Virus record (IMG/VR): IMGVR_UViG_2617271072_000004
Coordinates: 32,726-96,725 of that record
DNA from: a virus
Taxonomy: Duplodnaviria > Heunggongvirae > Uroviricota > Caudoviricetes
Strand: one strand, 5' to 3'
DNA length: 64,000 nucleotides
Part shown: one piece after another, positions 27,882 through 60,162 of the stretch
Position numbering within the stretch: the stretch's first letter is position 1
Layout: every line of letters starts with the position of its first letter
Translations under genes and position numbers: made by a program
Notes under the pieces: model-generated
Seen by the model: the letters and a program-made list of their open reading frames with translations, nothing else
Told to the model about the DNA's origin: nothing
The model's database searches: none

Positions 27882-28183
27882 TGCGTCTCCTTTTCCCTGA
27901 CTAAAAGCTCATCCAGCTTGCTTTTATGTTTGAGCACATAGCCACATATTTTTCCTTTGGAGCTAATTTGCGGAATGGAATAATATTCCGAAAATACTAA
28001 TTCAGCCTTTTCTAAGACAAGTGAAACACCATAGCGCGCAACATGTCTGTCGATCATTTTTGCATCACTGAGATTACCTTTAATTGATAGCCAGTCGTTG
28101 AGGTACATATGGTTGCGATTGGCTTTTTTCAGCATGTCGCTCAACCAATTTTTATTACGCTTAGTTAGTTTCCGTTGCATCAA
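27878..28183 (-). CDS. hypothetical protein (101 aa), AT-rich
   Basis: ORF between ban and glycosyltransferase. Confidence 0.45.
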   Translation of the reverse strand: MMQRKLTKRNKNWLSDMLKKANRNHMYLNDWLSIKGNLSDAKMIDRHVARYGVSLVLEKAELVFSEYYSIPQISSKGKICGYVLKHKSKLDELLVREKETQ

Positions 28184-29551
28184 TAATCCTCTTGCCAGTC
28201 AGCACCAGCATAGTTATCAAACCGTGAGTATTGGCCGTTAAAAGCCAATCTCACCGTGCCAATTGGGCCATTTCGTTGCTTACCGATAATCACCTCGGCA
28301 ATGCCCTTCATTTCGCTATCCGGGTGATAAACTTCGTCGCGATACAGAAACATGATCAGGTCTGCGTCCTGCTCAATTGCTCCTGATTCACGTAAATCTG
28401 AATTTACCGGTCGTTTGTCCGCACGCTGTTCAAGTGAACGATTAAGTTGTGACAATGCCACCACCGGTACTTGTAATTCCTTCGCCAAAGCCTTCAGTGA
28501 GCGAGAAATCTCGGCAATTTCCAGCGTTCGGTTATCTTGCAGCTCGGGGACGCGCATAAGTTGCAGGTAGTCGATCATAATCATGCTCAAACCACCATTT
28601 TCTTTATAAACACGACGAGCGCGGGAACGAAGCTCTGTAGGTGTCAGGGCGCTTGAGTCATCAATAAAAATATTTTGCTTGTCCAACAGAATCCCCATTG
28701 CGCCAGAAACCCGCGCCCAATCCTCGTCGTTAAGTTGCCCTGTTCGAATACGAGTCTGATCAACGCGTGCAAGAGAAGCCAGTGAGCGCATCATCAGCTG
28801 GTGGCTCGGCATCTCAAGGCTAAAAACCAATACGGGCTTATAGTTACGGACTGCGGCATTTTCGACGAGATTCATCGCAAACGTGGTCTTCCCCATAGAT
28901 GGGCGGGCGGCGACAATGATGAGATCGGACGGCTGAAGCCCTGCCGTCTTCTTATTGAGATCGGTAAATCCCGTATCAAGCCCCGTTACACCATCATGTG
29001 GTCGCTGAAACAACTCTTCTATGCGAGATACCGTTGCATCGAGAATGCTGGCGATATCTTTTGGACCACTACCGCTCTTTTGTCGTTTTTCAGCTATTTC
29101 AAAAAACGCGGCGCTCGGCCATATCCAGCAATTCATTGCTGCCCCTGCCATCCTGCGCATATCCAGCTTCGGCTATTTCATTTGCGACGGAAATCATTTC
29201 ACGAACGACCGCGCGTTCACGAACGATATCCGCATAAGCACAAATATTTGCCGCGCTGGGCGTGTTCTTTGACATCTCCGCAAGGTACGCAAAACCACCG
29301 GCGCGTTCTAATTTACCGTTCTGTTCAAGTGCTTCAGCAAGTGTTATCAAATCAATCGGTTTGCCATGACTTAATAACCTCTCCATCTCACTGAAAATTT
29401 CACGATGAGCACTGGTATAAAAATCATCAGCAACTATACGATCTGCAACTTCATCCCAGCGGCAGTTATCAAGCATTAAGCCACCAAGTACAGCTTGTTC
29501 TGCACTAAGGGAATTTGGCATGGATTCAAGAGGGGATGCAGACATTAGCAC
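28180..29551 (-). CDS. ban: replicative DNA helicase, DnaB family (Ban-like); frame broken at T6 run about 29100
   Basis: N-terminal domain (29099..29551) and RecA-like domain with Walker A ARPSMGKTT (28180..29160) in different frames; very close to recalled E. coli DnaB. Confidence 0.85.
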
Positions 29552-29831
29552 TCCACCCAGGCGTGCTGAATGTCAGATATAATCGGCATACTCAAATCAC
29601 TCCTAACGATATGAGTCATCACCAGAAAATCAGGATTAATGCGCCGGACTCTTCCCGGCTGTCACACCGAATCGCCAGGATGGTGAATCCCTTTACCCGA
29701 GAAACAACAAACGGTGGCTTGCACATTCCGGCTACCTGGTTCGTTGCCTGAGCTAGGGGCAAGGTTCCCCCCTTTTAACGTCACCAGACCGCTAACGACG
29801 CATGTGCCAGACGCCGTGTTACAACCAAATA

Positions 29832-29907
29832 TGGTGGCCCCTACCGGACTTGAACCGGTGACCGTGCGATTATGAGTCGCCAGCTCTAACCACTGAGCTA
29901 AAGGGCC
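29832..29907 (-). tRNA. tRNA-Ile (anticodon CAU, ileX-like)
   Basis: 76-nt cloverleaf GGCCCTTTAGCTCAGTGGTTAGAGC...CTCATAA...GGTTCAAGTCC...GGGGCCACCA; near-identical to recalled E. coli ileX. Confidence 0.8.
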
Positions 29908-56743: not shown

Positions 56744-56767
56744 ACCGAAACGGTAGGCGATAAGATC

Positions 56768-59700
56768 ATGGAAAGAAAAAAACGCCAACATTGACGATGT
56801 TATAAGGACAGTTGAAACCGCCAGTGCAAAAGAGCTGGAAGAGCTTGCAGGTATCCGGGAAGCTGTTGAAGATTTGAAAGGGGGACGCGTTGCAACTGTT
56901 GATCCTGTCTCTCGCAGTGTGTCGGCATTAAATCGCACAATCGAAAATTCCCGGCCAGACTTTGTGGCCAATGCGCCATCAGTGGACCCTATTGTTGAGG
57001 CAATGAAACGGCTTAATTTAGGGGACGTTTCTCGTGTAGTTCAGGAAGATGTTGCTCAACAGGAACAGCGGGCCAAATCAACCACACCAAAGGGTAAAAA
57101 ACGACGCAGGAAGGCTATACCAGAGGATGTAAAGGCACAACGGACCGAAGCAGCCGAACACGCTCGCGAAATGTTCGGTCAAAAAGGCGGTGCGCAAAAA
57201 AGCCAAAACCAACGCGATGCGCGTGGTCGTTTTTATTGGAAAGTCAGGGAGTAAGGCCGCAGCGGAAGATGCCCGTGCTGAACGAGCAGAAAAGGCCAGG
57301 CGAAAAGAGGATGATGAGCGTCTAAATGCTGAATCAGGTTTATTAAAAAAACTGTCAAAAGTAGCTGAAGGCATAGGTAACCCTTCAGAGACTCGTGCTG
57401 TCGATGCGTTAGGTTATGCCGTTGCAGGTCCATTGTGGGCAGCAGGGAAGGAGCTTGGCGGGATATCAAAAGAAGTTGGCGGATCGCTTAATGGTGCCAG
57501 AAAGTCTATTGCCGATGTGATTCGTGGCAATGACGATAACAGCCGTAGAAAAGGTTTTTTTAGGCGTAAATCGCAAAATAGTGCCGATGTCGTTCAGGTT
57601 AACACCCAAAAACGGACGGTTCAGGAACTTCAGGAGCAGACCAGCGAAATTAAAGAGGGCAATGACAAGATTCTCAGCGCCCTTGATCAGATAGCCAAAA
57701 ACACCGGGAAAAAGAAGGGCGGCTTGCTGTCCAAACTATTTAGCCTGTTAGGGAAGGGGGCCGGTGGCGTCGCGTCGTTGTTAATGGGGCGTGGCATGCT
57801 GAAAAAAGCTGGAGCACTCGCTTTTGGCGCTCTGGGGGCAAAGAAACTTGTAGGAATGCTACGCGGTGGTGGCAAGAAGACTCTCGCTCATGAAGGCGGA
57901 GATTTGGCTGCCCGGGCAGCAGGTAAACTTGGATTAAAGGCAGTTGGTAAAGGGGCGTTACGCGCAATTCCCCTAGTCGGCACAGTGGCTGGAGGTATTT
58001 ATGATGCGGTAACCGGTTGGAATGATACAGAAGCGCAACGTCGAGCGTTTTGGGCTTAAATCAGGACAAGATCCATCATTCCAGCAAAAAGCCGCTTATA
58101 CGTTAGCCAATGTTCTTGATTTGGGGGGACTGGTATCTGGTATTAGCAGTGCTATTGGTGATGTTCTCAAATCACTTGGATTTGAGGATATCGGCAATAT
58201 GTTGCAATCATTTTCGACGGAAAGTATTGCCCAGGCCATTGATAGCGGGGTTACCAACTTAGAAACATATATTTCTAACCTTGGCGACACCATTTCTACC
58301 AAGTTCGATGATTACACAGCAAAGATTGGTGATGCTGTTTCAGCATGGTTTAGCGATACATCTAATAAGTTGCTTGAAAAGCTGGATGCCATAAAAGACT
58401 TCTTTACTGTCGATAACCTGAAACAGGTTTTCAGTGATGCAATTGATAGTGCAATTGACTTCATTAAGAACCCAGGGAAACACATTAAAGAGGCGGCTGG
58501 TAATATTTGGGATGGGGTTAAAAATTTACCCGGTAAAGCATTAGATGCAGCGGTTGATGCCGTTAAAAATACCCCTGCGGCAATGATTGTATCAAAAATA
58601 CCCAATCCGATCGGCGAGGCTAATGCAAAAGAAATCACTCCAGAGTTAAAAGCTCCGGTTAATAGCCACCAGGAGACATCTGATTCTAAAACTGAATCCG
58701 ATGCTAAACAGACTAATATTGCTACCCGCGTGATAAATGCGGCACTGGACACGGCGAAAGATAGCAATAAAACAGTTAAAGAAACTGCCAATCAGATTAT
58801 CAATGCAAATGCCGTAGAAACGGGCAATAGCGCGGTGCGGAAAATTGATTCAGCTATTGGACAAAATAGCTCGTCATCATCGTCGCGTAATACCACCGGC
58901 ACTGGGAATGACATTCAGAAAGCTGCTGATACCTACAATAATGGCAACTTAGATGTAAAAGTCGGAAGCTTGGCGCTGAAGGTAAGGCAAATCTCGATAA
59001 GTTAGCTCCGTATTTTGCTGAACTAGAGAATAAATATGGTCTTCCTGAAGGCACTCTTTACGCGATTGCTGCAACTGAATCTGGTGGTAATCCATACGCA
59101 AAATCCCAAACTGGTGCTCTAGGAATGTTTCAGTTCACGGGCATTGCTCGTGAAGAGACTGGCTTAGCTGAAGGTGAATCGTTTGATCCTGTGAAATCGG
59201 CAGAAGCTGCGGCTCTTCTCATGAGCAAGTATCTGAAGCAAGCCAATGGAGACTTAAACGAGGCCATCACTGCATATAACGCTGGGTTTGGCACTATTAA
59301 TAAGTGGAAAAAAGGCACCGGTGACTTATCGAAGGAAAACCGTGAGTACGCGATCAAGGTCAATACTCATCGTGCTCGCTATTTAGGTGGTGAAATCTAT
59401 ACACCTGGGGCAGGAGCACAGGGTGGGGCGCAATATGGAGTGAGGGGACAACTGCCTGATAACGCCGTTATCGATCAGTCTACTGGTCTGGCGTTTACCC
59501 CTGGTGATAGCCCGTTTGAGAAAGGCGGTCTGGTAGACAAAATCGGCAATGCTGTTGGCGTTAACGATCTGGTCAACAAATTCATGAATGGCCGGGGTAT
59601 GCGTCGGGAAGTCGTTCAGGGAACGCTCGAAGAACGTGCACGAGGGAAGGGGACCGCAACAGCAGCTGGCAATGTGTATGTTGATACTCCGATGCCAGTT

Positions 59701-60162
59701 GAAGAGGCGCGTCCGGTGGCCAGCAACTCAAGTTACTTTGACCAACTCGGCGCACAAATGGGGATTGATGGACTATTCGATAAACTCCGCAACTCGCCGG
59801 GGATGCGGAAAAATAATGCGCCTGAACCAGCCTCCACGTCCCAGGTGACGACTGCCGCCAACGATTTGCAGCAACCAACCGGTCGTATGCAGATAGACGG
59901 GCAGGTTATTAGTGACCTTGGCGGTTCCGGTGCCAAGCCGACAATGCAGTTGGCTGATAATACCGTTTCACTTGATGGTGAAACGAAGCGGCTGTTTGCG
60001 CAGATGACCTCATTGCTTGCCAGGATTGAAGAGCACACCAAAGACTCGGCGAAAGGCCAGGGAACTGTCGTAAAGGTCAGCACGCCTCAGCCGGGCGTTA
60101 TGCGCACGGTACCACTGTCAATTGATGATCCGTTGATGAATGACTACGCGAGAGTTGATTGA
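56768..60162 (+). CDS. sit: tape-measure-like protein with lytic transglycosylase (SLT) domain, Sit-like (about 1130 aa); frame broken at least four times (about 56780, 57200-57250, 58040, 59010-59120)
   Basis: Collinear ORFs 56874..57254, 57190..58059, 58022..59005, 59125..60162; SLT motif ...ESGGNPYAKSQTGALGMFQFTGIAREETGL at the 59-kb junction. Confidence 0.7.

Follow-up and report, generated by a model that had tools for sequence, protein, structure and literature searches.

The window, a 64-kb stretch forming the end of GenBank contig CBWN010000116.1 from E. coli ISC7 (positions 32726–96725; assigned by exact protein matches and 100% DNA identity), is by its gene content a P1-like phage-plasmid. 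A collinear P1 gene set was found, comprising c1, the ant/kilA/repL immunity-lytic region, parAB, phd-doc, and tail and head genes; the modules for lysis-lysogeny, par, tail and head are all there, as are the three tRNA genes. Gene order from pacA to S is that of P1 (NC_005856), at 94–99% nucleotide identity, and the window groups with bacteriophage P1 and the P1-like phage-plasmids (Punavirus), in the p0111-type replicon group. It is distinct from P1 in its rep gene, which is of the RepB family (39% identity to P1 RepA), in the GIY-YIG nuclease gene that follows rep, an arrangement shared with many E. coli P1-like plasmids, and in its Ea22-like accessory region.

Genes split between reading frames

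Searching 73 P1 proteins against the window by tblastn revealed around 18 conserved genes, between 11.3 and 62.3 kb, that are split between frames (Table 1). The original prediction had placed such splits at 28.2–60.2 kb, where they are indeed real, but this range is too narrow, the phenomenon extending from 9.2 to 62.3 kb. Collinear frame switches were recovered in all of the named genes ban, parA, repL, kilA, ant1, gene 21, gp25 and sit, including the two expected in ant1 (51620 and 52014) and the four or more expected in sit (56776, 57230, 58048 and 58968). A structural gene noted at 46.4 kb is gene 21, broken twice (46997 and 47094), and one noted at 22.5 kb is gp25, broken at 23482; the split in the Ea22 region corresponds to small genes broken at 11309, 12638 and 14311, and a “Rossmann paralogue” is probably pmgO/pmgP (breaks at 20844 and 19900, respectively), which carry GSGPS motifs. 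Breaks in gp7 (24373), the RepB-type rep (39257), gp23 (43076), simB (53328), pmgB (56582) and gene 16 (62276) had gone unremarked.

Post-break frames are 99–100% identical to the P1 proteins, in agreement with the predicted collinearity of the pieces, and reverting the indels brought back every full-length frame, with restored lengths of 463 codons for ban, 400 for parA, 589 for gp23, 274 for gp21, 303 for repL, 272 for kilA, 361 for ant and 405 for gp25. The insertion at 43076–43080 removes the first ~15 codons of gene 23. Among ~15 billion proteins, the truncated products of ant (242 aa, a singleton), gene 21 (206 aa), gp25 and pmgB (312 aa) were found in CBWN010000116.1 only.

Table 1. Small indels and two private substitutions in the window, compared with other P1-like loci (A5, run of five As; gene coordinates are followed by the strand; fractions give the other loci that carry the other allele)
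Position	Change in window	Location and effect	Other loci
9159–9163	+1 A, A5 vs A4	intergenic	A4 in 5/5
11309–11312	−1 T, T4 vs T5	splits 62-aa hypothetical gene, 11257–11441, minus	T5 in 13/13
11583–11590	+1 A, A8 vs A7		A7 in 8/8
12634–12638	−1 T, T5 vs T6	Ea22-like region	weak: two close references only (L265, L266)
14311–14318	+1 T, T8 vs T7	splits 79-aa hypothetical gene, 14180–14417, minus	T7 in 43/43
16791–16798	+1 A, A8 vs majority A7	intergenic, pap/pmgS	A6 1, A7 61, A8 4
18353–18359	+1 A, A7 vs A6	intergenic, pmgR/pmgQ	A6 79, A7 1
19900–19904	−1 T, T5 vs T6	truncates pmgP, 19785–20407, minus	
20844–20850	+1 T, T7 vs T6	splits pmgO, 20308–20968, minus	T6 87, T7 0
23429–23437	+3 A, A9 vs A6	in-frame, gp25	A6 in 87/87
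23482–23489	+1 A, A8 vs A7	frameshifts gp25, 22493–23711, plus; 356-aa product	product in CBWN010000116.1 only
24372–24374	one C lost, CTGCAGG vs CTGCCAGG (CCWGG site)	truncates gp7, 23718–24442, plus	
29101–29106	+1 A (gene strand T6 vs T5)	splits ban, 28183–29545, minus; 148-aa and ~307-aa pieces	
34455	private C>T	directly 5′ of T run	depth 121
39257–39261	+1 T, T5 vs T4	near 3′ end of RepB-family rep, ~38396–39304, plus	T4 in 47/47
40804–40807	+1 A, A4 vs A3	splits parA, 40588–41782, plus	A3 in 71/71
42926–42979	4–5 one-base indels in 55 bp around A10 run	intergenic, parB/gene 23	
43076–43080	+1 A, A5 vs A4	gene 23 (major capsid), ~43032–44739, plus	A4 in 70/70
46996–46999	+1 T, T4 vs T3	gene 21, 46399–47216, plus, first frameshift	66/66
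47093–47099	+1 A, A7 vs A6	gene 21, second frameshift	69/69
50094–50099	+1 T, T6 vs T5	splits repL, 49604–50447, minus	58/58
51228–51232	+1 T, T5 vs T4	kilA, 50480–51281, minus, near 5′ end	98/98
51617–51622	+1 T, T6 vs T5	ant1, 51445–52487, minus, second frameshift	105/105
52012–52017	+1 T, T6 vs T5	ant1, first frameshift	54/54
53328–53330	+1 A, A3 vs A2	frameshifts simB, 53268–53601, plus	13/13
53608	private G>A	directly 5′ of A run	
54444–54448	+1 T, T5 vs T4	intergenic, simC/pmgC	16/16
56582–56583	−1 C, CC vs CCC	alters pmgB C-terminus, 55805–56685, plus	78/78
56708–56713	+1 T, T6 vs T5	intergenic, pmgB/sit	78/78
56776–56782	+1 A, A7 vs A6	sit, 56768–60162, plus, codon 5, first frameshift	77/77
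57230–57234	+1 T, T5 vs T4	sit, second frameshift	80/80
58048–58051	+1 T, T4 vs T3	sit, third frameshift	68/68
58967–58969	−1 C, GGAAGCTTGG vs GGAAGCCTTGG	sit, fourth frameshift	
62276–62278	−1 T, T3 vs T4	splits gene 16, 61948–62783, plus	

Indel spectrum and comparison with relatives

Base-by-base comparison with P1, seven complete E. coli replicons and ~300 IMG/VR P1-like loci yielded ~34 private small indels, 26 of them insertions and eight deletions. All 26 insertions fall in A/T runs, divided equally between A and T on the plus strand (13 each); both the insertion bias (P = 0.003) and the association of base with direction (Fisher P = 0.009) are significant. The proportion of A/T runs hit climbs with length, from 0.2% of 3-nt runs through 1.8% (4 nt), 3.9% (5 nt) and 9.7% (6 nt) to 21% (7 nt), and none of the 204 G/C runs of at least 4 nt in the window was lengthened or hit. 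Runs of at least 2 nt hold 30 of the 34 events. Most breaks had been described as lying at A/T runs of 4–9 nt; the A/T runs at the breaks span 3–9 nt in the window, and three breaks represent a C lost from CC or CCC. Intergenic runs are affected as well as genes, and the spread is uneven, with no indels in positions 1–9158 (3.5 expected) and one in 30–40 kb (4.3 expected). A cluster is present at 42926–42979, consisting of A to AA, T to TT and AAAA to AAA changes and an alteration within the A run, with indels directly after the A10 run, which leaves 4–7 gap positions against each of 71 aligned loci.

Substitutions are few: nine are private in 62,215 well-covered positions, four of them within a variable segment where sampling is poor and two next to homopolymers. 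The C>T at 34455 would be explained by a C-undercall coupled to a T-overcall, and the G>A at 53608 may be read in the same way, as an undercall coupled to an A-overcall. Compared with relatives, gene lesions in the window consist solely of 1-bp run-length changes, and no private nonsense substitution, IS insertion or deletion was found in the window copy.

At 25 of the 27 testable sites, the other allele is present in every one of the 5–105 P1-like loci available per site, the usual pattern at insertions being a run one base shorter. At 58967–58969, each of the 70 aligned loci shows a gap relative to the window, and the nearest (L178) differs in this base alone over 401 nt. The two exceptions are 16791, where A8 is possibly a natural length polymorphism, and 18353, to which targeted look-up added ban, pmgP, gp7 and gene 16. 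In three tiled regions of ~20 kb each, the window deviates from the majority run length 11, eight and nine times, compared with 0–3 times for each of 226 other P1-like loci (median 0), a difference well outside what chance would give.

The four lesions located by look-up, out of ~23 that break genes, are those known from other data sets, the rest being singletons. The pmgP T5 allele occurs in five Logan read-set assemblies, as does the gene 16 T3 allele, in one case with 99.97% identity over 3.4 kb, and the gp7 C-loss is common to the window, GCA_045610365.1 and CBWH010000057.1. Because they are found in independent data sets, these three deletions may be genuine rare alleles, and each is probably natural. 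The ban T6 allele was found elsewhere only in the unrelated Logan set ERR10496842 (0 mismatches over 3.4 kb), with no hits in IMG/VR, JGI metagenomes or GTDB representatives, compared with 96 IMG/VR hits for T5; it is possibly also a genuine rare allele.

Origin of the broken frames

The miscalls are limited to this assembly, scale with run length, are biased in base and direction, and are unaccompanied by substitutions. We infer a technical cause, and the best explanation of the broken genes, to which we give a probability of about 0.88, is homopolymer-biased sequencing or consensus error rather than gene decay. The same preference for sequencing error over a decaying remnant was expressed in the original prediction, and is upheld by the private A/T-run indels, their dependence on run length and the scarcity of substitutions, with all tests agreeing in direction. 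In the proposed course of events, the sequencing chemistry or consensus step of one draft assembly would have left ~30 homopolymer-length miscalls in the deposited consensus, most of them an additional A or T in a run of 3–8 and a few a missing C, each shifting the frame, such that gene callers or a reader would see ~18 “split” genes. CBWH010000057.1, from a sister assembly whose WGS accession prefix neighbours that of the window, has no homopolymer deviations in 20.6 kb, which indicates an error specific to the assembly of the window, and not common to both.

It is improbable that the indels are instead real, and mark a recently inactivated, decaying plasmid prophage in which slippage, for example in a mutator host, has frameshifted lytic, replication and partition genes. 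Natural frameshifts do exist in the family, as the pmgP, gp7 and gene 16 alleles in independent assemblies, the ban allele in one further data set, and the 0–3 genes marked “frameshifted” by PGAP in the same 46–50 kb of five relatives all attest; c1, phd-doc and dmt are unbroken in the window, as a defective prophage would keep them, and the clean sister assembly could be taken in the same sense. Real slippage is nevertheless implausible, as even without mismatch repair it would bring ~7 substitutions per indel and hit G:C runs: mutation-accumulation lines of mismatch-repair-deficient E. coli show this ratio, with indels making up 12% of events and G:C runs as hotspots (PMC8510543), whereas the window has 34 private indels to nine substitutions (34/43 against 12%, P ~2e-23). 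Decay is further opposed by the conservation of the frames past the breaks, the lack of any other private lesion, and the involvement of intergenic runs and of parA and rep, which are needed for plasmid maintenance. Moreover, except for that of ban, the +1 alleles are unseen in the ~300 relatives or the protein collection (length matches at 16791 and 18353 apart), and replication slippage would not typically give the +3 change or the five-indel cluster that follows the A10 run.

Still less credence is given to real +1 insertions in A/T runs arising by replicon-specific slippage that leaves substitutions at their usual level and rapidly silences the lytic genes of a prophage; one conceivable example is replication by a replisome that the plasmid has modified, as Ban, Hot and HumD are all products of P1 genes. 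Functional slippery sites, whether for programmed ribosomal frameshifting, transcriptional slippage or phase-variable contingency loci, can practically be discarded, for although some long A runs vary in length among relatives (16791–16798 and 32163–32170 each occur as A6, A7 and A8), both of these are intergenic, the in-frame length is invariant in relatives at all gene-breaking sites, and the events affect 18 unrelated genes at scattered positions as well as intergenic DNA, in runs as short as 2–4 nt.

Returning to sequencing error, a flow-based platform, Ion Torrent or 454, would fit as the source. Errors of these platforms, seen in assemblies flagged by NCBI for “many frameshifted proteins”, resemble those of the window in being one-base, confined to homopolymers and length-dependent. 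No statement of the platform used for ISC7 (CBWN01, GCA_000529855) was found in the literature; the IS/ISC strain series may come from an Ion Torrent study. In Ion Torrent assemblies, homopolymer indels cause frameshifts, A being the most affected base (PMC12046094), and the likeness to the window extends to the prominence of A/T, the accuracy of the remaining sequence and the failure of the errors to reappear in other assemblies (PMC12046094). The discrepancies in the Listeria comparison of that study were, however, mostly deletions, whereas those of the window are overwhelmingly insertions, and no platform was found for which A/T insertion bias is documented as an established signature. Nanopore-only assemblies with homopolymer deletions contain similarly split genes, an example from the same plasmid family being GCA_045610365.1 (L259), but the deviations of the latter are mostly −1 and in both G/C and A/T runs, compared with +1 in A/T only for the window, and the early-2014 style of the protein accessions suggests a submission older than nanopore sequencing.

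Consequences for the record and for P1-like plasmids

The main value of these findings is one of data hygiene. CBWN010000116.1, like the UniProt entries that stem from it (e.g. W1F1A3, W1F350, W1F371 and W1F2Y9), contains truncated forms of Ant, gp21, PmgB and gp25 that, judged from the sequence comparisons, are most probably absent from the cell, and the record would mislead anyone drawing on it to estimate pseudogene loads, to find new short ORFs or to recognize defective P1-like prophages. As a side result, pmgP, gp7 and gene 16 appear to have natural frameshift alleles that circulate, though rarely, in P1-like plasmids. Jointly with the reading of the indels as artefacts, and at the same probability, the split genes are not a biological feature, and apart from the miscalls the P1-like phage-plasmid of E. 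coli ISC7 in the window would be normal and essentially intact.

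Frame switches and restored genes

A tblastn search with 73 P1 proteins recovered collinear frame switches in every gene that the original prediction had described as broken (Table). The prediction had confined the phenomenon to 28180–60162, where it is indeed present, but these limits are too narrow, the real span being 9.2 to 62.3 kb, and several further genes had been overlooked. Once the indels are reverted, full-length frames return for every affected gene. In the PGAP annotations of five relatives, the same 46–50 kb holds only 0–3 'frameshifted' genes each.

The truncated Ant, gp21, gp25 and PmgB products were found on this contig alone among ~15 billion proteins. 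The parA N-fragment, ban C-fragment and repL N-fragment had no match in the protein look-up, probably because gene callers picked other starts; as the look-up is unreliable for internal fragments, DNA-level allele counts were used instead. Two candidate lesions were set aside: the plp split, a common structural variant with 100% identity in many relatives, and a 3-nt difference at 9248–9251, which looks like ordinary variation.

Table. Frame switches and other features of the window
Feature	Window position	Observation	Restored frame (codons)
ban	T5 run, 29102	predicted, confirmed	463
parA		predicted, confirmed	400
kilA		predicted, confirmed	272
repL		predicted, confirmed	303
ant		predicted, confirmed (two switches)	361
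sit	fourth site, 58968	predicted, confirmed (four switches); frame restored after the fourth site, CC to C, defined against the P1-like locus L178	
small Ea22-region genes		predicted, confirmed	
gene 21 (gp21)		predicted as the '46.4-kb gene', confirmed	274
gp25		predicted as the '22.5-kb gene', confirmed	405
pmgO, pmgP		GSGPS-motif paralogues, confirmed	
gp7	24372–24374	overlooked; C loss within a CCAGG (Dcm) site	
gp23		overlooked	589
simB, pmgB, gene 16		overlooked	
RepB-type rep gene		overlooked	
indel cluster	42926–42979	four to five indels within 55 bp around an A10 run	
intergenic A runs	16791–16798; 32163–32170	A6, A7 and A8 among relatives	
intergenic A run	18353	exception to privacy, as is 16791	
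private substitutions	34455; 53608	C or G becomes first base of adjoining T or A run	
plp split	31278–31443	rejected as a lesion	
3-nt difference	9248–9251	not counted as an error	
Ea22-like accessory segment	11825–14172	variable	
rep and GIY-YIG nuclease genes	38396–40419	nuclease (269 aa) between rep and parA	
contig end	64000	inside tail-fibre gene S, after ~230 codons	

Length changes in A/T runs

Base-level alignment with P1 and seven E. coli replicons, together with a panel of ~300 IMG/VR P1-like loci retrieved by ParB, gp6, BplA and PAPS-reductase queries, identified ~34 private small indels in the window. All 26 insertions fall in A/T runs, divided equally between A and T on the plus strand (13 each), and one of them adds three bases (A6 to A9). 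Of the eight deletions, five shorten A/T runs and the other three each remove a C from CC or CCC. The proportion of A/T runs altered rises with true length, from 0.2% at three bases through 1.8% (four), 3.9% (five) and 9.7% (six) to 21% at seven, and none of the 204 G/C runs of at least four bases was changed. Insertions are significantly favoured (P = 0.003), and the base affected is significantly associated with the direction of the change (Fisher P = 0.009). The errors are unevenly spread, with none in 1–9158 against 3.5 expected and one in 30–40 kb against 4.3 expected, the remaining window being dense with them.

Site by site, the run is one base shorter at the insertions, and one base longer at the deletions, in all of the 5–105 other loci compared, the sole exceptions in unbiased panels being two intergenic A runs (Table). 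The intergenic A runs at 16791–16798 and 32163–32170 vary in length among relatives; in-gene runs are, by contrast, invariant. As a control, each homopolymer of at least three bases was scored against its majority length in three regions: 226 other loci showed 0–3 deviations each (median 0), and the window 11, 8 and 9, of which 25 were upward and three downward. In the full panel, only nine private substitutions were found among the 62,215 positions with good coverage, and a variable segment with sparse sampling accounts for four of these. Two of the nine extend a neighbouring T or A run at the expense of C or G, and we infer that they express the same bias, in which G/C is under-called and A/T over-called.

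Consensus error, decay or mutation

From the indel and substitution spectrum, the privacy of the indels, the conserved downstream frames, the intergenic and maintenance targets and the singleton products, we conclude that consensus errors in this assembly account for most breaks. The original prediction had preferred homopolymer-biased sequencing error, and the excess of private indels over private substitutions (34 versus 9) supports it. The feature belongs to a well-known class, homopolymer errors in draft assemblies, and is not biological.

That the indels are real and the element a decaying remnant is improbable. The window copy has neither a nonsense mutation nor an IS insertion or deletion of its own, and the frames past each break are still 99–100% identical to the P1 proteins. 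Intergenic runs are altered as well, the maintenance genes parA and rep are altered alongside lytic genes, and the truncated products are confined to a single contig. The indel pattern is, furthermore, unlike real replication slippage. The spectrum most favourable to indels is that of mismatch-repair-deficient E. coli, whose mutation-accumulation lines gain ~6.0 substitutions to 0.85 small indels for each coding sequence, with prominent hotspots at G:C runs (PMC8510543). Against this spectrum, 34 indels among 43 private changes have P ~2e-23; a mismatch-repair mutator origin is rejected by this ratio and by the absence of G:C-run events. The idea that the runs serve as functional slippery sites is extremely improbable.

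Ion Torrent data are known for homopolymer indels that lead to frameshifts, with adenine most affected, and for a surplus of assemblies kept out of RefSeq for 'many frameshifted proteins' (PMC12046094). No description of the platform was found in literature searches on ISC7, CBWN01, GCA_000529855 and sister strains, nor was a strong insertion bias found documented as the signature of a particular sequencing technology.

The element and its relatives in other assemblies

Megablast searches of collections of phages, plasmids and complete E. coli genomes identified the window as a P1-like phage-plasmid, collinear in inverted orientation with P1 (NC_005856) at 94–99% identity and matching hundreds of E. 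coli plasmids at 98–99.7% over long stretches. Those collections yielded no exact source; truncated ORF products looked up exactly, and then DNA matches at 100%, place the window in the GenBank WGS contig CBWN010000116.1 (96,725 bp) of assembly GCA_000529855.1, from Escherichia coli ISC7. It forms the final 64 kb of that contig, record positions being 32,725 higher than those of the window. It is an ordinary member of this group. The replicon uses a RepB-family initiator rather than P1 RepA, to which it has 39% amino-acid identity, and this rep and GIY-YIG nuclease layout is shared with close E. coli relatives and many E. coli plasmids. The Ea22-like segment, which holds most private substitutions, is missing from P1 and eight E. 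coli references and is matched by a few IMG/VR loci only (L264–L266). The contig ends in gene S near the position at which the invertible C segment starts in P1; an assembly would naturally break there.

The sister contig CBWH010000057.1, from a neighbouring WGS accession, has no homopolymer deviations in 20.6 kb; errors common to both accessions are therefore not supported, and the problem is specific to the window's assembly. Another P1-like plasmid with several split genes (gp24, gp6, dmt), JBIHJD010000007.1 of GCA_045610365.1 (L259), has an error signature unlike that of the window: within 20 kb it shows five homopolymer deviations, of which four are −1, and a C run is among the runs affected.

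Three deletion-type frameshifts recur in other assemblies and are probably rare natural alleles. Five read-set assemblies from Logan have the pmgP allele (T6 to T5), and a different five have the gene 16 allele (T4 to T3), of which one matches at 99.97% identity across 3.4 kb; the gp7 C loss is shared with GCA_045610365.1 and CBWH010000057.1. The three assemblies that share the gp7 loss otherwise differ in error profile, and a truncated gp7 of 220 aa is listed in RefSeq as WP_244443759.1. The ban T6 allele recurs in Logan ERR10496842, with no mismatches over 3.4 kb, on a contig that also has two shortened G/C runs; T6 had no matches in IMG/VR, JGI metagenomes and GTDB representatives, and T5 had 96 in IMG/VR. 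Five independent Logan and NCBI contigs from Salmonella and E. coli (L027–L031) stop at, or within two bases past, the ban T5 run, with upstream contexts that differ, some having Band_7 and others TerB; these ends resemble a mosaic junction inside this helicase gene or a branch in the assembly graph.

CBWN010000116.1 and the protein entries derived from it should accordingly not serve as evidence of pseudogenes or of novel short proteins.
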